Source of the DNA: a virus
IMG/VR virus record: IMGVR_UViG_3300049255_000405
Length of the DNA stretch: 10,806 nucleotides
Reading direction: 5' to 3' (one strand)
In this document: one piece after another, positions 1 to 10,806 of the stretch
How the letters are laid out: every line of letters starts with the position of its first letter
Numbering within the stretch: the stretch's first letter is position 1
Position numbers and translations under genes: made by a program
Notes under the pieces: generated by a model
Told to the model about the DNA's origin: nothing
Databases searched by the model: none
Seen by the model: only the letters and a program-made list of their open reading frames with translations

Positions 1-693
1 GCCTGGGTTGTTCATGTCGGGCGGATACGCGCGCCCGCTCGGGGTGGGAAGCGGAGGGCCCCACAGGAAAGGCCGGTAATTCGTGGTTTTCTTCGGATCA
101 GGCTCATATTTGTCAGCTGCGTGGACGTTCACCTCCACCGAGTCCACATCGAGTTGGCTGCCTGCATTCGACTCTTGAAGCGCCGGCGAGAAAAAGACCT
201 GTCCTTGACCGCCGGCGAGGATGCCGGACCGGACCTCTCCTGTAAACTCGGCGAGCGGAATGCTGGTCAGCGGGACTCCCAAAGGAGTCGGCGGATACTG
301 GACATTCGGCTTGGCCTGGACCATGTACGACTGCGTGGTCGTACCGCCATCGGTGGTGCTCGCCTGGACGACAACAGAGACTGTGGCCGGATAGTCAAAA
401 CCGGCTATGATGTTGAAAGAATAGCCGTTGTCCGGGATGCTATACTCGTAGCTCGAGCCCGTGAACTGCGGATCGAAACTCGCGGTGCTTCCATCGAAGC
501 ACGGCAAGGCAGCGATGCTGATCTGCACGGTCGACAGATCGATGAGTCCGCCCTGGACTCCGATCGTCAGCTGAATCGCGTTCGTGCCTGTGGGTATAAG
601 GTCGCCGGGCTCCGGATTGAGCCCGGTCAAATATATGACACCACCACCGCCGTAGTTTGAGCCGAATTCTGCGCCCCAGCCAGGTGCGGGCAT
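1..693 (-). CDS. Hypothetical structural protein; N-terminal 231 aa only, the gene continues past the window start
   Basis: Hand translation of the minus strand from ATG (complement of 691..693) is open with no stop down to position 1: MPAPGWGAEFGSNYGGGGVIYLTGLNPEPGDLIPTGTNAIQLTIGVQGGLIDLSTVQISIAALPCFDGSTASFDPQFTGSSYEYSIPDNGYSFNIIAGFDYPATVSVVVQASTTDGGTTTQSYMVQAKPNVQYPPTPLGVPLTSIPLAEFTGEVRSGILAGGQGQVFFSPALQESNAGSQLDVDSVEVNVHAADKYEPDPKKTTNYRPFLWGPPLPTPSGRAYPPDMNNPG... A GGAGG Shine-Dalgarno sits 7 nt upstream. The gene is co-directional with and 71 nt downstream of the giant gene. It is absent from the ORF track because it is truncated by the window edge. The listed ORFs 121..660 (+) and 440..721 (-) are other frames of this same locus. 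Confidence 0.6.
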   Translation of the reverse strand, partial: MPAPGWGAEFGSNYGGGGVIYLTGLNPEPGDLIPTGTNAIQLTIGVQGGLIDLSTVQISIAALPCFDGSTASFDPQFTGSSYEYSIPDNGYSFNIIAGFDYPATVSVVVQASTTDGGTTTQSYMVQAKPNVQYPPTPLGVPLTSIPLAEFTGEVRSGILAGGQGQVFFSPALQESNAGSQLDVDSVEVNVHAADKYEPDPKKTTNYRPFLWGPPLPTPSGRAYPPDMNNPG

Positions 694-700
694 TCCGATG

Positions 701-705
701 CCTCC
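701..705 (-). promoter_or_regulatory. Shine-Dalgarno GGAGG for the 693..1 gene
   Basis: Minus-strand sequence GGTGGAGGCATCGGA-ATG; GGAGG lies 7 nt before the ATG. Confidence 0.55.
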
Positions 706-764
706 ACCGCACGTTACCCATTAGGCGCCTAGCTGCAGGGCTCGGTATTTAGTTACAGATACCC

Positions 765-1250
765 TCAGCTCAGCACAGCGATGGAGAACGAATTGGTCGC
801 TGCAGTGCGTATCAGCTTGTAAGTGTGGAAATTCCCGTCTGCCCAGTTGAAAGCTCGACGGAAAAGGCACTTGTTGGCGTTGAGGTCCTGGATCTTGATG
901 AAGTTCACGCTGTTGACGGTGTCGAAACCGATGGCTGCCGTGAACCCGGGACCCGCCATGCCGCTGATACCGATGTAGATATTCGTGTCGCCCGTGATGG
1001 GGTCTGGCACCGCCGCGTTGATGCGCACGCTGAAGGTCACGTCGAAATCCAGCGACGTGGCGTCGGGTAGTCCGGACGGGCTGATGTACACGGTCTTGGT
1101 ACCTGTGCCCGTCGTGCTGTAACGCAAGAAGTCGGTCACGCCCACGCTCAGGAGCTGGAGGGTGACCGCTCCCGGATTGTCCGCCGCCAGGACGAACGGC
1201 GTGAACTGCGCCACGTCGAGTCCGAGCTTGATTGACGCCGGCCCGCCGAC
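765..1250 (-). other. C-terminal domain of the giant protein with a third LamG-like motif (FNWADGNFHTYKLIRTAATNSFSIAVLS); candidate distal receptor-binding tip
   Basis: C-terminal residues about 2052-2080 match the same W...H-T-Y-K/R motif as copies 1 and 2. In fibre proteins the C-terminal domain is usually the receptor-binding tip (established general knowledge). Confidence 0.3.
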
Positions 1251-4200
1251 GAAGATTGAAGAGGGTGGACCGATGGTGGGACTGGTCAGGCGCAGCCTTC
1301 CGTCGCCATTATTTGACGCAAAGTTCGCCGGGATTCCCGGCGTTCCGTTGATACGAGACACGACCGCGCCGATGGTAGTGTCCGTCGCCTGGAACTGGAC
1401 GATAATCGGTGGGTTTGTATCGATCGCAATACTCAGATTATCGCCGGCCTCGATGGAGAATGGTTGAACATTGGCTCCGACCAAGTTGACCTGTTCGGGG
1501 AACGAGCCGCCTTCGTACGAGAGCGTGTGATCGGTCTGGTACTTCAGACCGCCCATGTGAAGGGTTTCGTCATCCGAAAACGGAGCGACGAGTCCAGCCT
1601 CTCCCGTCGTTATGGGGAAGAACTTCAGATTCTCGTACAGGACGCCGGACGGCGGGTCGATGTGAATGAAGATGGAGTTGCCGTGGACGCCCGGCTGAGT
1701 CAGGTGCAAGTTGTACGCGAGGTTGATGGCATCGGCGAGGACTGCCATCGTTCCTTCGTCGACAGCATCTGGGGCAGTCACCACATTCACGGTGTCATTC
1801 ATCACGTGGGCGGGAGCGTCCGAGTCGTTGACGACGGCCACTCTGTGCGCGTTGAAGTTGGCCTTGAGGGCGTTCGCCAAGGCGATACCGGTCGGCAAAT
1901 CCACCGCCGGCGGCAGGAGCACGGCGTCGAACTGGTCGTTGGACAAGTGCACGCGGTACTGCACGACGTGCTTGTTGAACGCCGCGAGGAGGTTGTTCAG
2001 GACAACGAGAGTTCCGGCGAGGAATGGCTGTACGACGAACGCCGTGCCGAGATTGTAGCCCTCGAGGTCCACGATGAGGTGGGAATCCTGGACCAGGATG
2101 TGCTGGTTGTAGTGGTTGGCGAGGTTGTTCGCGAAGGTGATTCCGGTGGGCAGGTCGACAGGCGGAGAATCGGAGTCGCTGTTGAAGCGGTCGATCCCTT
2201 TGTGCACGCCGGGCGCGTTCGGTCGATCGACGTTGACGATGTGCCGATTGAACTGAGTCTCGATGTCCGGCAGGAGGGCGAGAGCGCTCGGCAGGTCGAA
2301 GCAGGGCGGAGCTGTCGAAATGTCGACAGTGTCTGGCCGAACGTGCACTCCCACTTCCGACAAGTGGGCGTTGTAGAACGCCTGCAGGTCGTTGGACAGA
2401 GTGATGAGAGTCGGCAGATCCGATGCGGTGAGAGGCTCGAGGTTGATGATGTCGATGACGTTGTGAGGCCAGGTCCTTTCGACGTGCTCGACGAAGACCT
2501 GTTGGAAATTCTGCACCAGAGTGGCCAGGCTGGGTGCATCCGTCGCCGGCGGAGCCGTAATGGCGAACAGAGTGTCCGCGATGACGTGGACGCCGGCGGC
2601 CACGCGGTGAGCTTCGTAATTCGTGCGCACCTGATTCATCGCCGAGATGGCGTTGGGCAAGTTGAACATGCCCGGGATGGGAACGGTGTCTCCTGGATCG
2701 TTCGTCTGATGAACGCCTGGCGAAATGAGGTGATTGTTGAAGGTCGGAATGACCTGCGTGAAGACGATGGAAATGAGTTCCGTGATGGGCGTGTCGGACG
2801 ACGTCGCGTTGGTGGTGTCGTCCTCGAGGTCTGAGAGGAACCCACTCTCATCGACGAACTGAAGGGCGGGGACGGCCTCTTGCAGAGTCGCGGTCTTGCT
2901 CAGCCCACCACGCGACTGCAAATCCTGCGTCATGGGCACCGGAGGAGTGCCCTCGCCCAGGTTTGTGAAGGCGGCCAGAGCCGGGTTCGACAAGAAGTCG
3001 TCGGAAGGAGTCCCTCCCGAGTAAACCGTGAAACCTGCGTGCTCATGTGGCAGCTGAGTGTGCAGGTGCTCAGGAGAGACGACCGCGTTGGCCTGATTGA
3101 GCGTCTGGTGCGGCGGGATGAGGCGATTGGTCAGCGTCAGCTTGCCGATCGAATACTTGATCGGACCCCAAATGACGCGAGCGATTTCTTCGGGGTCGAA
3201 ACACCCGAACGCGATGCATTCCCTGTTGCCAGTAATCGGCTGCAGGAAACTCGCCGCAACCCCTGGAAGCTTGATAGCGTCGTAGTTGATGGAGATGACG
3301 GGGATGTTACCGCCGTCGAGAAAGACGGACACATTCCCTGACGGGTCACGCACCACACGATAAGTGTGGGACTGAGTCCAATCGACCTGAGAGATGTAGT
3401 ACGAGGCAAGAAGCGACGGATCTCCGCCCGAGTAGATACCGATGAATCTCCTGGAAGCCGCCGTAGGATCTGCGACCTTCAGGTCGCGGAATCCGCAGAC
3501 CGACCTCCAGTCGACCACGGACATCGCTGTACTCGGGTCGCCGTTGCCGACCGCCGTACCGCCAGACCCAAAAGTCATGGCTGGACCGACGACACCAGGG
3601 TGGAGGCTGTTGTACGAGAAATTCCCGAGCGAGATGTTATCGCCCAGGACTATGCAGATCCCGGCTGTCTTGTTCGTGAACAGGTCGACTGAGTGGATCT
3701 GCCCATCATTCCAGGCGAACGGGAAAGCTGCTTGCTGATCGAGAAAGCCGGTTGTCGAATTGTACGACAGCACATTGATATATGTGCCGCCGAATTGGTC
3801 TACCGCGTACTGCAGCTCTACATTCTTGCCGGACGTGCCTTCATCGACGTTGACGAGGACTCCAGCGAATTGCAAATTGGTCCCCGAGACGATCGGGTTC
3901 CCCGGAGTGAATGACACGACAGCGAGCCGGAAGTCGACCTTCCAGTCCACAGCGGGATTGAAGACGGGGCTCGTGTACAGAGTGTTGTTCAGAGTGTAGA
4001 CAAGGAAGTCGCTGGTGCTCGAGTCCGTGATCCGCATCGTGCGGCCGAGCATCTCGGACGCCTGGCTTCCAGAAGCCACCCAGTCTGGCGTGTCCTGGTC
4101 CGGGAAAGTCGCGCCAAACCAAGAGACTTTGGGTTCAGGATTGGAGTCGCGTCCGAAGTATGTGCCCAGGGCCAGACCCAACTTCTCCAGTGCGTTTCCG

Positions 4201-7007
4201 CCGAGAAGTCGGAGCTGAGAATTCGCGCCGAGCGTCTGATCCGTCAGAACGATGGCGCCGGAGCCGTTGTCCGCGGCGAGCGCGAAGCCTACCGCGGCGT
4301 TGATGACGGTCGAAACCTGCGCTGTGGTCGTCGCTGGTGAGGTGAAAGTGACGGTGATGGGCTCCGCCGAACCGATGCCAATAATGGCGGTGTCGTTGGT
4401 GGCGATGCCGAAAGGTTGCGTCGATGTCCCGGTGACAGTGGCCGCGCTCGGGGTGTCCTGCAGGAACAGAAGCCACGTCGAGAAGATGTCATCGTCGATG
4501 AAGACGCCGGCGCCCTTGTTGTCCAGGCTGAATGTGTAGAATCCAAGGCTCGCCGTGAACTCCACGGTGCTGGCGGCCACTCGAGTGAGGATAGGCTCGA
4601 GCCGCAAGAACCCGCGATACGCACCGGTTGTCATACCGAGCGCGGCAATGTCATCGAGCGGAGCGCTGGCAGTCGAATCCAGGACGAGCTTGTTGAGCGA
4701 CAGTCGCTCGAAACCCGACTGCCCAATAGTGATCCACGGGGCGGTGGGGTCGAGTTCCGGGAGGACCGTGGGCTCGTAGTCGACCGCTTTGTTGTCGCCA
4801 ATCTGGTCTTCGTCGATGGGCGTGACATCAACGCGGATGAAAGCCCACTTGCTGGTCGAAGTGCTTCGGCGCCACACAGCACCGAAGAACACTTGCGACA
4901 TCGGATTGAGCCGAATGTCGACGTCGGACGTTGCAGGAAGCTGCGCGTGGGTCACGCTTGCTGTGGGGACAACAGCGCCGCTGGTGTAGAGGGAAACGTT
5001 CCCCTCCGAGTCGCGGAAGATGCGGTAAGTCGCGTCGATGGACCAGTTGACTGCTCCACTGACCCAGCTGTCCTCGAACTCCGGGAAGCCAGAGTTGGTG
5101 AGAAACCCGATCTGCTGCACCAGACCCACCGAGTTGACGGTGTCGTTGTTGTAGTGGATGCCAGGAGCGGTCAGGTGCGTGTTGAGGTTGTCACGCAGCT
5201 GGTTGACCAGGGCGAGAGCGCTCGGGAGATCTGTCGAGTCCGGCGCCGTAATCTGGTCGGCCGAGTCAGCGAGCACGTGAATGTGACCGCCGCCGTAGGA
5301 CATGTGCTGATTCATCAGCACTTTGAGGCGGTTCGCGAGGATGATGAGAGAGGTGAGATCCGTCGCGTTGACGATATCCACCGTGTCTATAGTGTCGTTC
5401 GGCCGATGCACACCCGTAAGGATAAGGTGAGCGTCGAAAGCGGCCGACAGATCGTTCACCATTGCAATGGCGGACGAAAGATTATTGGCGTCGGTGAGGA
5501 GCAAGCCGACCAGAGCGACTTTTTGACCATCCGCGAGGCCGAAGCCGACGCCCGTGAAGGTCCCATCCGGAACGGTCTGCGACACGCTCACGCGGAAAGC
5601 TGCGGAGACTGTGCTGTCGAAAGTGAGGTCGATGGGATGCGTGTAGAAAGGAGGCTCGATTCCCGGACCTGGACTCGGGTTAGAGTCCACAATGGTGAGC
5701 CCGGTCCCTCCAGGAGCCAAGCTCATCGTGCCTTGACCCTCGAGCGTCCAGGGGTCTGTCGCCTGATCGGGCAGAGCCGTCGGGTCGTACCTAATCACGA
5801 CCTCGAACACTTCAGCGTTGAGGACCGGGAAGAAAACCCGGTTAGTTGGCACGTTCAGCAGCAGCGTGTTCGGATCGTTGAGGACAGCGCTGTAGCTGCG
5901 CTGGAGCATCTTGTACTTCCAGCCCGTGCGCAGCGGTTGATACGGAGACTTGATGGTGGGAAGCGCGTTCGTCGGGTCGACGAGGGTTGCTTTGGCCCGA
6001 TACGTGTAACCCGGCACGCCCATGAATCCGCGGTTGCCGGATTCGTTGAGGACGAACTCTGGAGAGTTGAGCCTCTGAAACTGCGTCGGTGGATTTCCGA
6101 GAAAATCGTAGTTGATGGTGACGGTGTCGGTCGGTTGTGGTGTGTTCGTCAGCACCACTGCACCGAGGAGACCGAAGACAGCGTCGACACTGGTCTCGAT
6201 GCCGTTGACGAAGACCTGCACATCTGCAGGGCTGTCAGCCACTTCCCCGATGCGCGGGTCCGAGAGAACCCAATTGAATGGACCGATGTTGACGCCCGAC
6301 TGGAAGGCGACTTGAGCGGATGGAACCGTGACCCTGTCGACCGTGTCTCTCTCGTAGTGGTAGACGCCGCTGTCACGGTGAAGTTCGTACGCTTGCCGGA
6401 GAGCGTTGGCCAGATAGAACGCGCTTGCCAGATTGCTCGCTGGCGGCAAGAGCACGACGTCTTGCGAGTCAGGATTGAGGTGAACGGGAGGAACGCCGCC
6501 GGTGAGCCCGATGTGGTTGAGGAACTTCGGCAGAAGCTCGTTGAGGAGAATGATCACACTCGACAAGTCCACCGAATTTTGCGCCAGAACCACGTCTGCC
6601 GGGTCGATGGTGCCGTGCACATATGGCGGCGCTCCCGTCCCGCCATTGACCACGTGGGCGTTGAACTCAGCCTTGATGTTGTTGGCCAAGGCAACGACGG
6701 CCGCAAGCGTCACCTGAGGATCCGAAGCGTCTAGCGTCGCGTTGCCAAGTGCCAGAGTCGTCGAATTCGGCACCGCCGCGATGGGAAAAGTGCCATCATT
6801 GCGTCCGTGCGGACTGCCGGAGATGGTGATCGTCTTGCCGATGAAGGTCAGGTCGAACGATGCAGTCGGGATCTGCACCAGGTTCGGACCGATGACCATG
6901 AGGTTGGAGCCTGTGAGCAGCGGGAGTGGCTGCTTGACGATCACACCCTTGTTGGTGAACAAGGTGCGGTCGCGCACAGACTGGAGGGCGGAGAGCGGGA
7001 CAGTCAT
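765..7007 (-). CDS. Giant 2080-aa mosaic fibre/adhesin-like protein: about 15 copies of a His-pair ~40-aa repeat in three blocks, plus three LamG/concanavalin-like lectin motifs; putative tail fibre or host-recognition protein
   Basis: Single uninterrupted 6.2-kb ORF, essentially impossible by chance. It has internally coherent protein-level repeats. It has no N-terminal signal peptide (MTVPLSALQSVRDRTLFTNKGVIVKQ...). Composition is rich in T/S/N/D/V/G and poor in K/R/C/W, as in beta-rich fibre proteins. Its start ATG overlaps the upstream gene's stop as TGATG. Confidence 0.88.
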   Translation of the reverse strand: MTVPLSALQSVRDRTLFTNKGVIVKQPLPLLTGSNLMVIGPNLVQIPTASFDLTFIGKTITISGSPHGRNDGTFPIAAVPNSTTLALGNATLDASDPQVTLAAVVALANNIKAEFNAHVVNGGTGAPPYVHGTIDPADVVLAQNSVDLSSVIILLNELLPKFLNHIGLTGGVPPVHLNPDSQDVVLLPPASNLASAFYLANALRQAYELHRDSGVYHYERDTVDRVTVPSAQVAFQSGVNIGPFNWVLSDPRIGEVADSPADVQVFVNGIETSVDAVFGLLGAVVLTNTPQPTDTVTINYDFLGNPPTQFQRLNSPEFVLNESGNRGFMGVPGYTYRAKATLVDPTNALPTIKSPYQPLRTGWKYKMLQRSYSAVLNDPNTLLLNVPTNRVFFPVLNAEVFEVVIRYDPTALPDQATDPWTLEGQGTMSLAPGGTGLTIVDSNPSPGPGIEPPFYTHPIDLTFDSTVSAAFRVSVSQTVPDGTFTGVGFGLADGQKVALVGLLLTDANNLSSAIAMVNDLSAAFDAHLILTGVHRPNDTIDTVDIVNATDLTSLIILANRLKVLMNQHMSYGGGHIHVLADSADQITAPDSTDLPSALALVNQLRDNLNTHLTAPGIHYNNDTVNSVGLVQQIGFLTNSGFPEFEDSWVSGAVNWSIDATYRIFRDSEGNVSLYTSGAVVPTASVTHAQLPATSDVDIRLNPMSQVFFGAVWRRSTSTSKWAFIRVDVTPIDEDQIGDNKAVDYEPTVLPELDPTAPWITIGQSGFERLSLNKLVLDSTASAPLDDIAALGMTTGAYRGFLRLEPILTRVAASTVEFTASLGFYTFSLDNKGAGVFIDDDIFSTWLLFLQDTPSAATVTGTSTQPFGIATNDTAIIGIGSAEPITVTFTSPATTTAQVSTVINAAVGFALAADNGSGAIVLTDQTLGANSQLRLLGGNALEKLGLALGTYFGRDSNPEPKVSWFGATFPDQDTPDWVASGSQASEMLGRTMRITDSSTSDFLVYTLNNTLYTSPVFNPAVDWKVDFRLAVVSFTPGNPIVSGTNLQFAGVLVNVDEGTSGKNVELQYAVDQFGGTYINVLSYNSTTGFLDQQAAFPFAWNDGQIHSVDLFTNKTAGICIVLGDNISLGNFSYNSLHPGVVGPAMTFGSGGTAVGNGDPSTAMSVVDWRSVCGFRDLKVADPTAASRRFIGIYSGGDPSLLASYYISQVDWTQSHTYRVVRDPSGNVSVFLDGGNIPVISINYDAIKLPGVAASFLQPITGNRECIAFGCFDPEEIARVIWGPIKYSIGKLTLTNRLIPPHQTLNQANAVVSPEHLHTQLPHEHAGFTVYSGGTPSDDFLSNPALAAFTNLGEGTPPVPMTQDLQSRGGLSKTATLQEAVPALQFVDESGFLSDLEDDTTNATSSDTPITELISIVFTQVIPTFNNHLISPGVHQTNDPGDTVPIPGMFNLPNAISAMNQVRTNYEAHRVAAGVHVIADTLFAITAPPATDAPSLATLVQNFQQVFVEHVERTWPHNVIDIINLEPLTASDLPTLITLSNDLQAFYNAHLSEVGVHVRPDTVDISTAPPCFDLPSALALLPDIETQFNRHIVNVDRPNAPGVHKGIDRFNSDSDSPPVDLPTGITFANNLANHYNQHILVQDSHLIVDLEGYNLGTAFVVQPFLAGTLVVLNNLLAAFNKHVVQYRVHLSNDQFDAVLLPPAVDLPTGIALANALKANFNAHRVAVVNDSDAPAHVMNDTVNVVTAPDAVDEGTMAVLADAINLAYNLHLTQPGVHGNSIFIHIDPPSGVLYENLKFFPITTGEAGLVAPFSDDETLHMGGLKYQTDHTLSYEGGSFPEQVNLVGANVQPFSIEAGDNLSIAIDTNPPIIVQFQATDTTIGAVVSRINGTPGIPANFASNNGDGRLRLTSPTIGPPSSIFVGGPASIKLGLDVAQFTPFVLAADNPGAVTLQLLSVGVTDFLRYSTTGTGTKTVYISPSGLPDATSLDFDVTFSVRINAAVPDPITGDTNIYIGISGMAGPGFTAAIGFDTVNSVNFIKIQDLNANKCLFRRAFNWADGNFHTYKLIRTAATNSFSIAVLS
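1668..2795 (-). repeat. Repeat block C of the giant protein (about residues 1405-1780): 9 tandem copies of the His-pair repeat
   Basis: TFNNHLISPGVHQTND; NYEAHRVAAGVHVIAD; FVEHVERTWPHNVID; DLPTLITLSNDLQAFYNAHLSEVGVHVRPD; DLPSALALLPDIETQFNRHIVNVDRPNAPGVHKGID; DLPTGITFANNLANHYNQHILVQDSHLIVD; VVLNNLLAAFNKHVVQYRVHLSND; DLPTGIALANALKANFNAHRVAVVNDSDAPAHVMND; AVLADAINLAYNLHLTQPGVHGNS. The spacing of the first His is 40-47 aa. Similarity is at protein level only, since the nucleotide sequences have diverged. Confidence 0.7.
3150..3700 (-). other. LamG/concanavalin-like lectin motif 2 in the giant protein (DWTQSHTYRVVRDPSGNVSVFLDGG); domain bounds approximate
   Basis: Residues about 1209-1233, nt about 3309..3383. 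This is the best match of the three to the LamG core W-H-x-x-x-V-x-R-D-x-x-G-x-V-S-x-F-L-D-G. Confidence 0.4.
4900..5150 (-). other. LamG/concanavalin-like lectin motif 1 in the giant protein (W-x-x-x-x-TYRIFRDSEGNVSLY); domain bounds approximate
   Basis: NWSIDATYRIFRDSEGNVSLYTSG (about residues 654-677) resembles the conserved core of laminin-G/ConA-like jelly-roll domains (W-h-h-v-x-v-x-x-D-x-x-G-x-x-x-L-Y-V-D-G). Confidence 0.35.
5148..5495 (-). repeat. Repeat block B of the giant protein (about residues 505-620): 3 copies of the His-pair repeat
   Basis: NLSSAIAMVNDLSAAFDAHLILTGVHRPND / DLTSLIILANRLKVLMNQHMSYGGGHIHVLAD / DLPSALALVNQLRDNLNTHLTAPGIHYNND. The first His falls at residues about 528, 568 and 611, a spacing of 40-44 aa. 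Confidence 0.65.
6318..6725 (-). repeat. Repeat block A of the giant protein (about residues 95-230): 3 copies of the His-pair repeat
   Basis: TLAAVVALANNIKAEFNAHVVNGGTGAPPYVHG / DLSSVIILLNELLPKFLNHIGLTGGVPPVHL / NLASAFYLANALRQAYELHRDSGVYHY. Coordinates are approximate (+/- 10 nt). Confidence 0.6.
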
Positions 7008-9049
7008 CAGGCGCTCACGATCTCGTTTCCGTAGAGGTCCTGCACTCCGTAGATATCAAGAGAGTATTGGGCTTTGGCCATTCCGATGACGTTGATGCTC
7101 AGAACTCTATCGTCGACCCACTCCGAGCCCTTCGTCAACAGTCCCGGTGGCCCAGTAATGACGATGTCCGCCGGCGTGAGTGCGGCCGGGCGGATGGGTT
7201 TAGAGAAGTAGACTTGCACGGCGTCCTGCTCCCAGCGAACACCATTGTTCGTATCGACTACGCCAATCTTCGGGATGGCCGACGCTACGAATGGAGGCGG
7301 CTCCACACCGATGAAGGGAGCCTGGATCATGAACCTCCTCGGCACGGTGCCGTTCCTCACGTCGATGAAGGAATACTGCGATTGCGCCTTCACCTGATAG
7401 GCCGCACCGTTGAGCATCCCGAGGTCGATCTGAAGAGTGTCGTAGAGTTTGGCCGAGTAGAGCGACACGCCAGCGGAATTGTGAACGCCCACGTTCACGT
7501 TGTGCGCCGTGAACGAGTTGGTCAGCCGCTCGAGAAGCAGAACGGCGGAGGGGAGGTCCGTCGCGTACCGCATCCGGACCAAGTTCGGATCCGGATAGTT
7601 GTGGTAGACAGTCGAGCTGGCGTGGTCGAGGTAGATGTCGCGCACGCGGTTGACTGCGGCGATGGCCGAAGCGAGACTGGCTACCGGGAATTCGCTCGGC
7701 AAGAAGTAGTTGATGAAGTCGGGTTGCACATGTCCCGCGCCGTACGGCGTCGTGATGTGCTGATTGTACGACTGCATCAGGTCGGTGACGGCCAGAACGA
7801 GAGCCTGGATGGAAGCGGTGACGTCGGCTCCGTCTGTAGGAACAGCGCTCGTTGGTCCAAGCACTGAAAGACTTTGGAGTGCCGGAAGCTGGATTCCCTG
7901 CGAGAATCGGAAACCCGCTTGTTGCGGGATCACCTGAGTGCCGACCACACGAGGCGGCGTCGCCAGAGGAAGAACTGAAATGCTGCCTGTGTAATCACCA
8001 GGATTCGTTGTACGAGCGAGATCTTCGCTTTGAATTTGCGCAGTCAGCTGGTACGACGGATTCGGGCTCGTCGCCGCGACCTCCACCTGGGCGAAATACG
8101 TGCAGGTATCCACCGCCGGGAACGCGAGGCCGTCCTGTGCCGAACTCCAATCGCGCACCGACTTGATGACCACGGGCGAACCGTTGGACGTCACCGTCCA
8201 GTTCGCGGTGTTGATGACCTCAGCATGGGCCATCGTGCAGCTGAAGAACACGTTGATGAAGGCGCGGTTGTACCCGCTGGGTGCGTCGGAAACGCTGTCG
8301 ACCCATGCATCGATGATCTGCGGCTGGCTGAGGACAGCGTATGTGTAAGGCTGCGGTGCCCGCAAAGTCAGTGACAGAGGGATAGTAGCCTGCACTTGAT
8401 TGTACGACCCGTCGACCACGTCCGCGAACGAGATGGTGTAGCTCGAGGCTGTGTCCATCGCCGGATTCAGCTCGAACCGAAGGACGTTGGCCGGGAACGA
8501 TCCATCCCACGGAATGCGGGTCATGGGTTGAGGTGTCCCTCCCATTGCCGCCTGGATGGTCGCTGTGCACGCTGGAGAACTCGGACCTACGGACCGGTCG
8601 AAATAGATGTCGACCATATTCCGGAGCGAGAGAAACGCTCCGATGGCCAGAGGAGGGTTCGGCACGTTTGCCCGAAAGTTTCCAGCACTCGGAGTCACAC
8701 TGTTGCCATCTGGACTCGTGACGCCGACGATGGAGAGCGCGTAGACCGTCTGGAATGTGAGCGACTGATTGAGCGTGAGGGCGACGGACCTATGGTCCGC
8801 GTCGTAGAAAGAGACGGTGACTACGACCGGGACGTAGTTCGGGACCGGGCCGCTGACGGCGAGCATCGAGTAAGCGCCCGGTTGAAGGGCGGACTCGTCA
8901 ACTTGGTCGTCGAACTGAACTCGAATAGTTCGCTGATCAAGCACGTGCGGTGTGAACCCGAACGGCAGAGGCGGAAACTGGCCGATACCGCCAAGAACGA
9001 TCTTGCCTAGCTGGCTACCGGCGCCTCCGAGCTGTCCAGTGAACGGCAT
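7007..9049 (-). CDS. 680-aa protein with four bacterial Ig-like (SbsA/Big_5-like) domains and three copies of the His-pair repeat; putative fibre/baseplate-associated structural protein
   Basis: Complete ORF. AAGGTG Shine-Dalgarno 4 nt upstream of the ATG. Only 11 nt after the stop of the collagen-like gene. Its stop overlaps the next start (TGATG). No signal peptide (MPFTGQLGGAGSQLGKIVLGG...). Confidence 0.85.
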   Translation of the reverse strand: MPFTGQLGGAGSQLGKIVLGGIGQFPPLPFGFTPHVLDQRTIRVQFDDQVDESALQPGAYSMLAVSGPVPNYVPVVVTVSFYDADHRSVALTLNQSLTFQTVYALSIVGVTSPDGNSVTPSAGNFRANVPNPPLAIGAFLSLRNMVDIYFDRSVGPSSPACTATIQAAMGGTPQPMTRIPWDGSFPANVLRFELNPAMDTASSYTISFADVVDGSYNQVQATIPLSLTLRAPQPYTYAVLSQPQIIDAWVDSVSDAPSGYNRAFINVFFSCTMAHAEVINTANWTVTSNGSPVVIKSVRDWSSAQDGLAFPAVDTCTYFAQVEVAATSPNPSYQLTAQIQSEDLARTTNPGDYTGSISVLPLATPPRVVGTQVIPQQAGFRFSQGIQLPALQSLSVLGPTSAVPTDGADVTASIQALVLAVTDLMQSYNQHITTPYGAGHVQPDFINYFLPSEFPVASLASAIAAVNRVRDIYLDHASSTVYHNYPDPNLVRMRYATDLPSAVLLLERLTNSFTAHNVNVGVHNSAGVSLYSAKLYDTLQIDLGMLNGAAYQVKAQSQYSFIDVRNGTVPRRFMIQAPFIGVEPPPFVASAIPKIGVVDTNNGVRWEQDAVQVYFSKPIRPAALTPADIVITGPPGLLTKGSEWVDDRVLSINVIGMAKAQYSLDIYGVQDLYGNEIVSA
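7010..7228 (-). other. C-terminal Ig-like domain of the 680-aa protein
   Basis: VQVYFSKPIRPAALTPADIVITGPPG...VLSINVIGMAKAQYSLDIYGVQDLYGNEI. The classic SbsA_Ig-type ending is ...V-x-D-L-x-G-N. Confidence 0.45.
7460..7828 (-). repeat. Three His-pair repeats in the 680-aa protein (residues about 408-530)
   Basis: DVTASIQALVLAVTDLMQSYNQHITTPYGAGHVQPD / FPVASLASAIAAVNRVRDIYLDHASSTVYHNYPD / DLPSAVLLLERLTNSFTAHNVNVGVHNSAG. This is the same family as in the giant protein, and the first-His spacing is 45 and 40 aa. Confidence 0.65.
8054..8923 (-). other. Three tandem Ig-like domains (SbsA_Ig/Big_5-like) in the 680-aa protein
   Basis: RVQFDDQVDESAL...VTVSFYDADHRSVALTLNQSLTFQTVYALSIVGVTSPDGNSV; VDIYFDRSV...WDGSFPANVLRFELNPAMDTASSYTISFADVVDGSYNQV; INVFFSCTMAHAEVINTANWTVTSNGSPVVIKSV...CTYFAQVEV. 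These follow the V-x-V-x-F-S-x-x-V ... T-Y-T-V-x-V ... D-x-x-G-N pattern of bacterial Ig-like domains. Confidence 0.45.
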
Positions 9050-9053
9050 AAGG

Positions 9054-9059
9054 CACCTT
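9054..9059 (-). promoter_or_regulatory. Shine-Dalgarno AAGGTG for the 680-aa gene
   Basis: Minus-strand sequence TAG-TAAGGTGCCTT-ATG: stop of the collagen-like gene, SD, 4-nt spacer, start. Confidence 0.55.
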
Positions 9060-9060
9060 A

Positions 9061-10686
9061 CTAGAAGGTAGCGATCAGCATCCAGTCATTTTGCCCGTCG
9101 CTGACAAACATGTAGGAGGTGCGTGAACTGACGGGTGTGAACGAGAGCCCAGTCTGCCCGTCCATTGTGTCCGCCCCGGTTGGAACCAAGCCGACTGCAT
9201 TCGTCGAGGTCGCGATGGCCTTGACCACGATGGGAATGCCGTAGTAGAGAGCGGCCTCAGGGAAGAGGACGTTGACCGGCTGGTGCGTGGAATTCACGCG
9301 CACGATCTGTCCGGGCTCCGCAAGGACAGTGATCGCCGATTGCTCAGGCGTGGGGGAATAGCTGGTGTTGATGGGCCCGGTGACGCCTTGCGGTCCCTGA
9401 ATACCCGTAGCACCGATGGGCCCTTGAGGACCTGTGGCGCCTTGCGGTCCAGTCGGTCCGATGGCACCCTGAGGACCAATATCGCCGGTCGGGCCCTGTA
9501 CACCAGTGGCTCCCGGGGGCCCGCCAAAAGGACCAGTTGGTCCTTGATCTCCCTGCGGCCCCGTGGCACCCGCAGGTCCGGTCGGACCCGTCGCGCCCGT
9601 GAGACCCTGGTTTCCTTGGGGGCCCTGGACGCCGGTCGCGCCTTGCGGGCCGGTCGCCCCAACAGGGCCAGTTGGCCCGAGAGGGCCGGTGAATCCGATA
9701 GGCCCGGGAGTCCCTTCGATACCCTGGACGCCGGTCGCTCCTTGGGGTCCCGTCGCACCTTGCGGGCCGACTGCACCCGTAGGGCCGGGCGGACCACCGA
9801 ATGGGCCGGTGGGTCCTTGCGGACCAGCGGAGCCCGTTGGTCCGGCAGGCCCTGCAGGGCCTGTTGCACCAGCTTGACCGGTTCCCTCGAGCGCAATGGC
9901 TGAAAGGTTGCCCGCGTCGAACTGGATTTGGTTGCCACCTACGCTTCGCCACTGGACTTTGACGGTATACGTCCCGGCGGGAAGTTGAGTGCTAACAAAG
10001 TTGTTCGAGACAATTGCGGCTTCGTTAGTGTTCACCTCATTGCGCCGAATCTCCGAGCTAAGTTGCCCGTCGATGTAGAGAATGATGCCGATGGACTCCG
10101 TGGTGCTAATCTGCTCCCACTGGATATCGGTTTGAGCGTAAATAGCGCAAGTTGCGCTGGTCGTAATAGTCGTGCCGAGCCCAGGAACATCGACAAACGA
10201 CGTCGACGTAGTTGTGGCGGGCCCGACTGCAGATGCGTAGGCAGAATCGATCGGGTTGTTCGGACCTGCAGGCCCTGTAGCGCCATCAGCCCCGGTGGCT
10301 CCCGGGATACCCTGCGGCCCCTGGATTCCCTGCGGACCCTGAGGGCCAGTGGAGCCCTGCGGACCGATTGCCCCGGTTGGTCCCTGGACACCGGTGGGCC
10401 CGATGGTGCCCTCGACGAAATTGGTCAGAGCGCCAGCAGTCAAAACGTGAGTGACAGTCGCTCCCGGGAGGTGCTGAGCCGGAGGCGTGTTCTCGATGCC
10501 GCGGATGACAGAGAAGACGCTGCCCTGAATACCCGTCACCAGCATCAACTCGTTGTCGATGCGGATGCGGAACTGCGGCGCCGGCGGGAACTGGGTGACG
10601 TTCGTCGTCTGGACGTAGTTCGTCACTGCGTCCAGCGGCAGCTGCAGAGTCCCCTGGGCTGTGTTGGCAAATTGCTCTTGGGCCAT
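9061..10686 (-). CDS. Collagen-like triple-helix repeat fibre protein, 541 aa. Layout: N-terminal domain, G-X-Y tract 1, globular beta-rich domain, G-X-Y tract 2, C-terminal domain
   Basis: Long runs of uninterrupted Gly-X-Y triplets rich in P/Q/T/A ([47 protein letters not shown] and a second tract of about 170 aa). Complete ORF with ATG. No signal peptide. Confidence 0.9.
9373..9885 (-). repeat. Collagen-like G-X-Y tract 2 (about 57 triplets, residues about 268-438) with two one-residue register 'stutters' ([11 protein letters not shown])
   Basis: [43 protein letters not shown]...[32 protein letters not shown]...[11 protein letters not shown]. The GPF-GGP-PG motif occurs twice, about 91 residues apart, as part of an internal duplication. 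Each occurrence shifts the Gly register by one residue. Confidence 0.85.
9886..10260 (-). other. Globular beta-rich domain between the collagen tracts (possibly C1q/TNF-like, as in BclA-type collagen-like proteins)
   Basis: [125 protein letters not shown]. It shows alternating hydrophobic beta-strand character. Its position, interrupting a collagen stalk, is unusual. Confidence 0.35.
10261..10404 (-). repeat. Collagen-like G-X-Y tract 1 (about 16 triplets, residues about 95-142)
   Basis: [50 protein letters not shown]. Confidence 0.85.
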
Positions 10687-10706
10687 TTTGCACCCGCGCA
10701 GGGCGG

Positions 10707-10725
10707 TTATTCACAGGTGCAATAA
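10707..10725. promoter_or_regulatory. AT-rich imperfect inverted repeat TTATT-N9-AATAA in the intergenic region upstream of the collagen-like gene; candidate promoter or operator element
   Basis: On the transcribed strand: CTTATTGCACCTGTGAATAAC, 35-55 nt upstream of the ATG at 10686. It is the only AT-rich patch in an otherwise GC-rich region. TTGCAC is a 4/6 match to a -35 hexamer. Confidence 0.25.
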
Positions 10726-10735
10726 GAGCCCCAGA

Positions 10736-10806
10736 CTAGAAATCGCTGCTGTGATCTTCTCCGACCACTTGCTTGGCCCGTTTGAAGCCCGCGGTGTCCA
10801 ACCCGG
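10736..10806 (-). CDS. Possible 3' end of an upstream co-directional gene (C-terminus ...GLDTAGFKRAKQVVGEDHSSDF-stop); an alternative frame ends at 10711
   Basis: Two of three minus-strand frames stay open from the window edge. One runs to TAG at 10736..10738 and the other to TGA at 10711..10713. There is no way to choose between them without upstream sequence. Confidence 0.2.
   Translation of the reverse strand, partial: GLDTAGFKRAKQVVGEDHSSDF

Follow-up and report, generated by a model that had tools for sequence, protein, structure and literature searches.

Which structure is built by a run of very large, unannotated genes, and does it belong to a virus or to a cell? The question is raised by a stretch of viral DNA of 10,806 nucleotides (nt) from the IMG/VR record IMGVR_UViG_3300049255_000405 (hereafter the window, meaning this stretch at its full length), whose minus strand carries a collagen-like gene, a gene for an immunoglobulin (Ig)-like chain, a giant gene and parts of two further genes. 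The initial annotation had proposed that these genes form the end of a phage structural operon that specifies tail fibres and host range, possibly in a large phage. Both proposals are supported: a Baseplate_J gene lies just upstream of the module in syntenic relatives, some relatives are found on IMG/VR viral contigs and others on contigs of 200–480 kb, with synteny to the 485-kb phage genome LR745208.1 and single-gene homology to the phage Tunturi_5. The window thus very likely represents that part of a late structural operon which encodes the distal baseplate and the fibres, in an uncultivated huge phage with a contractile tail. The genome of this phage probably measures ~240 kb, and its lineage is one of poorly charted huge phages that are distantly related to LR745208.1 and Tunturi_5.

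An open reading frame (ORF) scan with translation confirmed the four coupled minus-strand genes described before, with products of 541, 680, 2080 and at least 231 amino acids (aa), and revealed in addition the 3′ end of a fifth gene (Table 1). The junctions, read from the sequence, are also as described. The collagen-like gene and the gene for the 680-aa protein are separated by TAG, 11 nt (TAAGGTGCCTT) and ATG, with a modest AAGGTG Shine-Dalgarno motif, and the genes for the 680-aa and 2080-aa proteins meet in cTGATGa, where one base is common to stop and start. A 71-nt gap precedes the fourth gene, and the sequence GGTGGAGG (GGAGG) within it lies 8 nt 5′ of the ATG. The stop of the fifth gene, seen in the frame-3 translation of the window, lies in the same orientation 49 nt before the collagen-like gene. 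A sequence scan of the window found no sigma-70-like promoter within the gene block, and terminator-like hairpins are rarer there than expected from shuffled sequence. The GC content of the window is about 60% (59–65%). As the initial annotation had stated, the four proteins have no Sec/Tat signal peptide: a hydropathy screen, which is a crude heuristic and not SignalP, returned no basic N-region, N-terminal hydrophobic core (maximum KD10 ≤1.66), RR motif or transmembrane-like segment in any of them. Signal peptides would not be needed by virion proteins, because virions assemble in the cytoplasm and exit by lysis.

The identity of the module follows from its neighbours. Two short contigs are identical to the window, L008 and L007, the latter with the same 2080-aa gene and the full fourth gene, which encodes 275 aa. 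Relatives at 65–89% identity keep a one-strand order of genes for proteins of ~780, 244, 393, 1148 and 281 aa, the collagen-like protein (492–813 aa), the 680-aa protein (up to 936 aa), the ~2080-aa protein, and proteins of 275–351, 218, 205 and 913 aa. The 1148-aa protein scores 35 bits against Baseplate_J (cutoff 21.1; E = 1.2e-8), and in tblastn it matches the annotated baseplate wedge subunits of Tunturi_5 and of Bacillus phage G. This wedge gene, of the T4 gp6-like type, is located two to three genes upstream of the module in the relative L004, and also in L001 and L005. On the downstream side, the 218-aa protein matches phrog_5417 and a Tunturi_5 ‘virion structural protein’, and the 913-aa protein matches a Tunturi_5 ‘tail fiber protein’. 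In a relative on a 393-kb contig, the one-strand block of large genes continues over 10 kb further on each side, with products of 643, 219 and 2011 aa on one side and of 900, 483, 222 and 1547 aa on the other. Both giant flanking genes (2011 aa, L013 2704–8739; 1547 aa, L019 15235–19878) are on the strand of the module, and the 1547-aa protein matches phrog_1101 ‘tail protein’. Altogether, the module is surrounded in its relatives by ~45 kb of virion genes, most of them without annotation.

The gene fragment at the window edge connects the window itself to the wedge gene. Its frame-3 translation, GLDTAGFKRAKQVVGEDHSSDF, matches the C-terminus of the 281-aa protein of L004, ...GLDTAGFKRVRQVVGEDHSSDF, and judged by this match the fifth gene is the one whose product, of ~281 aa, is encoded next after the Baseplate_J wedge protein in relatives. 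No Pfam or PHROG family matches the 281-aa protein. The simplest reading of its position is that it would be the wedge partner of the gp6-like protein, analogous in place to gp7 of T4 or gpI of P2. In the family searches with the window’s own proteins, matches to Flagellin_IN (E = 0.06), lumazine synthase and HxsA4 were sub-threshold and were disregarded.

Two phage genomes allow a wider comparison. Tunturi_5 is an isolated myovirus, a Tunturiibacter jumbo phage with a 309-kb genome (PMC11924767; accession PP885688), and LR745208.1 (L012) is a 485-kb uncultured huge phage that was deposited as a phage genome. LR745208.1 contains, in the same order as the module, homologues of the 244-aa, 395-aa, Baseplate_J, 281-aa, giant-protein core, 218-aa and 913-aa proteins, and its Baseplate_J homologue aligns to the 1148-aa protein with 34% identity over 99% of the length (tblastn). 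With Tunturi_5 the homology is confined to individual genes, namely those for Baseplate_J, for the 218-aa virion protein and for the 913-aa tail fibre. Identities to both phages range from 24 to 42%. Where the window lineage has lectin-rich giant proteins, Tunturi_5 has RCC1-like ones; its portal gene lies 11 kb from its wedge gene. As to the host, the likeness to Tunturi_5 is no more than a weak hint at Acidobacteriota. LR745208.1 lacks a collagen-like or 680-aa gene. A single ORF of 1763 aa (23361–28652) directly follows its Baseplate_J homologue, and in one frame the N-terminal part of this ORF aligns to the 281-aa protein and its middle to aa 296–885 of the giant protein. Two proteins encoded separately in the window lineage are thus joined in one ORF in LR745208.1. 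Gene order and fusion suggest that the genes for the collagen-like and 680-aa proteins were added specifically in this lineage. The fusion also yields a prediction, open to test, of the order in which parts dock at the periphery of the baseplate. We found nothing useful in the literature on LR745208.

Clusters of baseplate and fibre genes are well known from contractile-tailed phages, namely gp6-gp7-gp8...gp12 in T4, gpJ-gpI-gpH in P2 and gp47-gp48-gp49 in Mu. The module resembles them in its one-strand late genes, in the succession of a gp6-like Baseplate_J protein, a wedge partner and fibres, in translational coupling, in the lack of signal peptides and in the fast divergence of the distal parts. 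It differs in that its proteins, besides Baseplate_J, have no detectable sequence similarity to the T4, P2 or Mu components, and in that it is far larger, with ~45 kb of structural genes in relatives that include three proteins of ~2000 aa. The way in which the module works would be that of distal baseplate and fibre clusters in contractile-tailed phages at large; it is of an ordinary kind, made of unannotated proteins, and current ideas on how phages work are unchanged by it.

The centre of the module is the 2080-aa protein, whose homologs fall into more than 100 clusters, all of metagenomic ‘hypothetical proteins’ on contigs of up to 475 kb. An AlphaFold2 (AF2) model of residues 1–1200, with a predicted local distance difference test (pLDDT) score of 79.4, contains several jelly rolls and two sets of three long helices (97–119, 148–166, 193–211; 510–528, 551–569, 594–612). 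A Foldseek search placed the jelly rolls among concanavalin A (ConA)-like lectin structures with a probability of 1.0 and template-modelling (TM) scores, normalised to the target, of 0.55–0.64 (2w68, 1oq1, 2a6w). The structures matched include the lectin wing of the Vibrio cholerae sialidase, legume lectins, Emp46/47 and the Hc domain of botulinum neurotoxin (BoNT), and matches among viral models are to multi-ConA/LamG phage adhesins and minor tail proteins. The LamG/ConA-like fold appears at the level of predicted structure alone: Pfam gives no LamG match for the 2080-aa protein itself, and a precomputed match to PF13385 is on record for one homolog (P0070). The collagen, Ig-like and LamG-like content reported earlier is thereby accounted for, the first two by Collagen and Big_5 matches above their cutoffs and the third by predicted structure. 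A predicted multi-copy jelly-roll fold is likewise common to a putative adhesin of Pseudomonas phage PaBG, to Vibrio phage phi-Grn1 and Synechococcus phage LamG proteins and to the V. cholerae sialidase wings, to which the 2080-aa protein is only 8–16% identical. It also differs from the multi-ConA/LamG phage adhesins in the arrays of helical repeats between its lectin domains, which have not been reported for them.

These arrays consist of a 42-aa unit with the consensus DLpSaixLxNxLxxxFNxH-x(6-13)-vHxxxDxvdxVtaP. With hmmsearch, 15 copies were found in the 2080-aa protein and three in the 680-aa protein (Table 1). An alignment of 17 copies left two His and one Asp as the sole invariant residues, and across 20 homologs with identities down to 39% no change is seen at any of the 30 His of the 2080-aa protein. 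Each copy is predicted by AF2 to form one long helix and a loop, with pLDDT values above 90; the two helix sets of the 2080-aa model fall in arrays 1 and 2, and the three long helices of the model of the 680-aa protein in its repeat module. No Pfam family covers the repeat, and its profiles match no PDB chain by sequence; the literature likewise yielded nothing useful on it. Among 1.84 billion representative proteins, the repeat profile returned 896 at E ≤1e-3, which amounts to ~900 protein clusters (at 50% identity), and 369 at E ≤1e-10. Its copy number is a multiple of three in 94 of the 148 listed proteins, a share that becomes 65 of 82 where there are no more than seven copies, and many repeat proteins of 140–350 aa have exactly three. 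Since copy numbers favour multiples of three, and since many small proteins have just three, the triplet is the structural unit, and it would most simply be a three-helix bundle.

The arrays act as insertable spacers. In the distant homologs P0126 and P0127 the flanking β domains align and arrays 2 and 3 are missing, the homolog P0032 has 26 copies in total, and the 2011-aa protein upstream in the 393-kb relative has six (L013 2689–8736). Outside the window lineage, the repeat occurs in proteins that match tail sheath, Baseplate_J/wedge, tail spike, major tail and ‘head fiber’ families, and the single informative name among 144 further repeat homologs is ‘phage tail sheath gpL-like’. It was undetected in LR745208.1 and in the Tunturi_5 region, and tblastn found none in isolated phage records, also when a three-repeat, consensus-like segment served as the query. 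The repeat is an undescribed module that many uncultivated phages share across their sheath, wedge, spike and fibre proteins, and it would merit the definition of a family and a structure. It is also the sole element of the window that could be new at the level of a domain. As a speculation, the invariant His, His and Asp might form a metal site or a fixed hydrogen-bond network; they could alternatively make up a ligand-binding or catalytic site. A fuller proposal, which we advance tentatively and with more doubt than confidence, is that the triplet repeat may be a new and widespread domain of phage virion surfaces, in which the His-x(6-13)-His-x3-Asp of each unit or triplet would bind metal, and that it may serve as a rigid spacer, inserted or expanded to set the reach of receptor-binding lectins.

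The distribution of the repeat bears on a first alternative, namely that the proteins are fibres or decorations of the capsid of a huge phage. Six of 70 unrelated repeat-carrying proteins match phrog_6994 ‘head fiber protein’. In Tunturi_5, the counterpart of the 218-aa protein is encoded two genes after the portal gene, and Ig-like chains and collagen-like fibres do decorate the capsids of some phages. We nevertheless regard a location on the head as improbable. The module directly follows the Baseplate_J gene and its partner, and in LR745208.1 this partner is fused to a module protein; the downstream neighbour matches a tail-fibre gene, and the repeat is found in sheath, wedge and tail-spike proteins as well.

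The 680-aa protein, encoded between the collagen-like and giant genes, matches Big_5 (PF13205) in two stretches (46.7 bits, cutoff 23.6). Its AF2 model, calculated from an alignment of 17 homologs, consists of serial β sandwiches (pLDDT 82.6; predicted TM score, pTM, 0.75) and has three long helices (414–431, 459–477, 499–517). Foldseek related this model to generic strings of Ig and FN3 domains alone, such as those of S-layer proteins and contactins, at TM scores below 0.2. The 20 homologs of the protein are all metagenomic ‘hypothetical proteins’. A tblastn search of 50,697 phage records with the 680-aa protein as the query was empty, as was a scan of IMG/VR with a single protein, and a PDB sequence search with the family returned nothing significant.

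The 541-aa protein is composed of an N-terminal domain (aa 1–92), a first Gly-X-Y (GXY) run (93–143), a knob (144–265), a second GXY run (266–438) and a C-terminal domain (439–541). Pfam Collagen (PF01391) matches it in four stretches with E = 7e-31 (106.2 bits, cutoff 27.2), and the predicted structure of its long GXY runs is a trimeric triple helix with globular interruptions and caps. Long GXY runs are shared with the collagen-like phage tail fibres of phrog_6320, phrog_5073 and phrog_1806 (‘collagen like minor tail’); the likeness to these fibres and to the Scl and Lcl adhesins is confined to GXY, and the non-collagen domains of the 541-aa protein have no family. The NCBIfam models for Scl1/Scl2 and Lcl score 131, 120 and 114 bits against cutoffs of 325, 500 and 400. 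Translation and hydropathy showed neither an LPXTG motif nor a signal-like N-terminus in the protein, and an identity as an LPXTG-anchored adhesin of the Scl1/Scl2 or Lcl type was rejected, as the scores are far under the cutoffs and GXY-driven and as anchor and signal are missing. The size of the collagen-like protein varies between the window (541 aa) and its relatives L001, L004 and L005 (492, 626 and 813 aa among them), as would be expected if GXY repeats had been gained and lost. The knob resembles trimeric, TNF-like lectins of the BC2L-C N-terminal type at E = 0.035–0.06, which is not significant; this weak similarity would fit a receptor-binding part and is a lead, not evidence.

The knob also stands out by its divergence. 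Measured against L004, the closest relative compared, neighbouring proteins are 80–89% identical overall and the 218-aa protein 90–100%. The knob is the fastest-diverging segment, with 46–50% identity between flanking segments of 82–88%. It is followed by the fourth protein (54–72%, with a 76-aa indel), by the middle of the 680-aa protein (68–72%) and by the last 280 residues of the 2080-aa protein (77–80%, against ~90% elsewhere in that protein). Such a pattern is expected of receptor-binding parts and supports a role in host range, and the candidate determinants of host range are the knob, the product of the fourth gene and the C-terminal part of the 2080-aa protein.

Taken together, these observations suggest how the module would work. 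The late genes would be co-transcribed and translationally coupled, so that partners are made together. The gp6-like Baseplate_J wedge protein would carry or bind the ~281-aa partner, as gene order indicates, and the 2080-aa protein may dock on this partner to form the periphery of the baseplate, because the two are fused in the LR745208.1 ORF. The predicted ConA-like domains of the giant protein would then bind glycans on the host surface, spaced by stiff triplet modules whose helices and invariant residues are observed in the models and alignments and whose bundle geometry and metal ions are presumed. A trimeric collagen fibre with its fast-diverging knob may add reach and specificity, and the 680-aa chain and the 275-aa protein could be further exposed fibre, adaptor or receptor-binding components. 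Binding to host glycans would finally trigger the baseplate. The term ‘fibre’ is demonstrated for the collagen-like protein alone; the 2080-aa protein is better described as a lectin-rich protein of the baseplate periphery. With this, a role is assigned to a block of unannotated giant genes that recurs in huge phages of soil and other environments, with more than 100 clusters for the 2080-aa protein.

Several points weigh against the assignment to a baseplate and fibre module. Phage hallmark genes had been expected in the flanks, and in the relatives this was borne out for the baseplate wedge gene and not for the tube, sheath, portal and terminase genes, none of which, and no capsid gene either, was recovered from a contig that carries the module. 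In the 393-kb relative, another 20 kb of flanking sequence added only a weak tape-measure match and one ‘tail protein’ match, with no head or tail-tube hallmark. The 2080-aa protein has no significant Pfam, PHROG or NCBIfam family and no sequence relative in the PDB, the 680-aa protein has no significant family in these three collections beyond Big_5, and the fourth protein matches none of them and returned nothing significant in a PDB sequence search. The many PHROG tail-fibre matches of the 541-aa protein align solely through the GXY runs, and we discount them as driven by low complexity and not independent evidence. The three-helix bundle geometry is read off secondary structure and pLDDT, not off coordinates, and we infer oligomeric state, glycan binding, metal binding and the order of docking.

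The replicons that carry the module favour a tailed phage (Caudoviricetes). It was found on IMG/VR viral contigs of 393, 274, 242, 182, 133, 132 and 69 kb, and the window’s own proteins are recorded on a contig of 240,015 bp. The longest contigs with identical and related proteins measure 240,015, 242,266, 273,770, 302,149, 382,860, 393,220, 436,316 and 475,623 bp, with a further one of 303 kb, and across ~140 homolog clusters the longest contigs reach at most 476 kb, with none above 1 Mb. Two pattern scans of 185,579 bacterial and archaeal genomes (GTDB; one per species), limited in sensitivity by the few peptide patterns used, gave no match in one case and a single 2.1-kb contig of a metagenome-assembled genome (MAG) in the other. 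This contig (L023; DATBQC010000365.1, 2103 bp) stands alone in a Methylobacter sp. MAG, and its coding sequence is a partial homologue of that for the 2080-aa protein. Mis-binning of a phage fragment probably explains its presence there, and it may otherwise hint weakly at the host. The L004 module contains two homing endonuclease genes, one of the HNH (endonuclease VII-like) and one of the GIY-YIG type, at 6271–6822 and 20145–20882. The GIY-YIG gene lies between the 218-aa and 205-aa genes, which abut on L007, and in the window lineage the module has no such interruption; the L004 genes look like recent mobile insertions.

On these data, the option of a prophage or other temperate element integrated in a bacterial chromosome, which the initial annotation had kept beside a free phage, is very unlikely and was not upheld. 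It could draw on the host-like GC content of 59–65%, on the recombinase and/or integrase genes reported in Tunturi_5 (PMC11924767) and on the fragment in the Methylobacter MAG. Against this, no relative was found on a contig of chromosomal size among the 185,579 species genomes, which gave only that 2.1-kb fragment, and the contigs of the ~140 clusters end at 476 kb. Homing endonucleases and a size of 200–480 kb are typical of virulent huge phages, and the MAG match is a short stand-alone contig that was probably mis-binned.

Lower still in probability is a phage-tail-like particle encoded by a cell, such as a tailocin, an extracellular contractile injection system (eCIS) or a system related to the type VI secretion system (T6SS), with fibres that target other cells. 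Baseplate_J and fibre genes are common to such systems, and the stretches examined show no head gene. The relatives, however, are listed in IMG/VR as viral genomes of 130–390 kb, LR745208.1 was deposited as a phage, Tunturi_5 is an isolated phage with a portal gene near its wedge gene, and the pattern scans found the module absent from reference bacterial genomes save for the 2.1-kb MAG fragment. Finally, a cellular surface-fibre system with non-classical export, the other option of the initial annotation, can be set aside as almost certainly wrong: collagen-like, Ig-like and lectin domains do occur in bacterial adhesins and there are partial Scl and Lcl matches, but these reach 113–131 bits against cutoffs of 325–500 through GXY alone, LPXTG motif, signal peptide and transmembrane segment are missing, no secretion partner was found in the ~45 kb of syntenic flanks, where most genes have no family match, and all context is viral.

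The genes and the segments discussed above are located in the window as listed in Table 1.

Table 1. Positions of genes, repeat arrays and the collagen knob in the 10,806-nt window
Feature	Position	Strand	Description
Fourth gene, 5′ part	1–693	minus	ATG 693–691; 231 of 275 codons inside the window, runs off the window start
Giant gene	765–7007	minus	2080 aa; complete, uninterrupted ORF (ORF scan and translation)
Ig-like chain gene	7007–9049	minus	680 aa; complete, uninterrupted ORF (ORF scan and translation)
Collagen-like gene	9061–10686	minus	541 aa; complete, uninterrupted ORF (ORF scan and translation)
Fifth gene, 3′ end	10736–10804	minus	last 22 codons and TAG
Repeat array 1, 2080-aa protein	6312–6710	minus	aa 100–232, 3 copies
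Repeat array 2, 2080-aa protein	5109–5483	minus	aa 509–633, 3 copies
Repeat array 3, 2080-aa protein	1638–2786	minus	aa 1408–1790, 9 copies
Repeat module, 680-aa protein	7430–7810	minus	aa 414–540, 3 copies
Collagen knob, 541-aa protein	9892–10257	minus	

The plus strand of the window also contains two long ORFs with TTG starts, both antisense to the 2080-aa gene, at 4416–6734 (772 aa) and 1464–2834 (456 aa). They have no support as genes, and are most likely a by-product of the GC content of ~60%.

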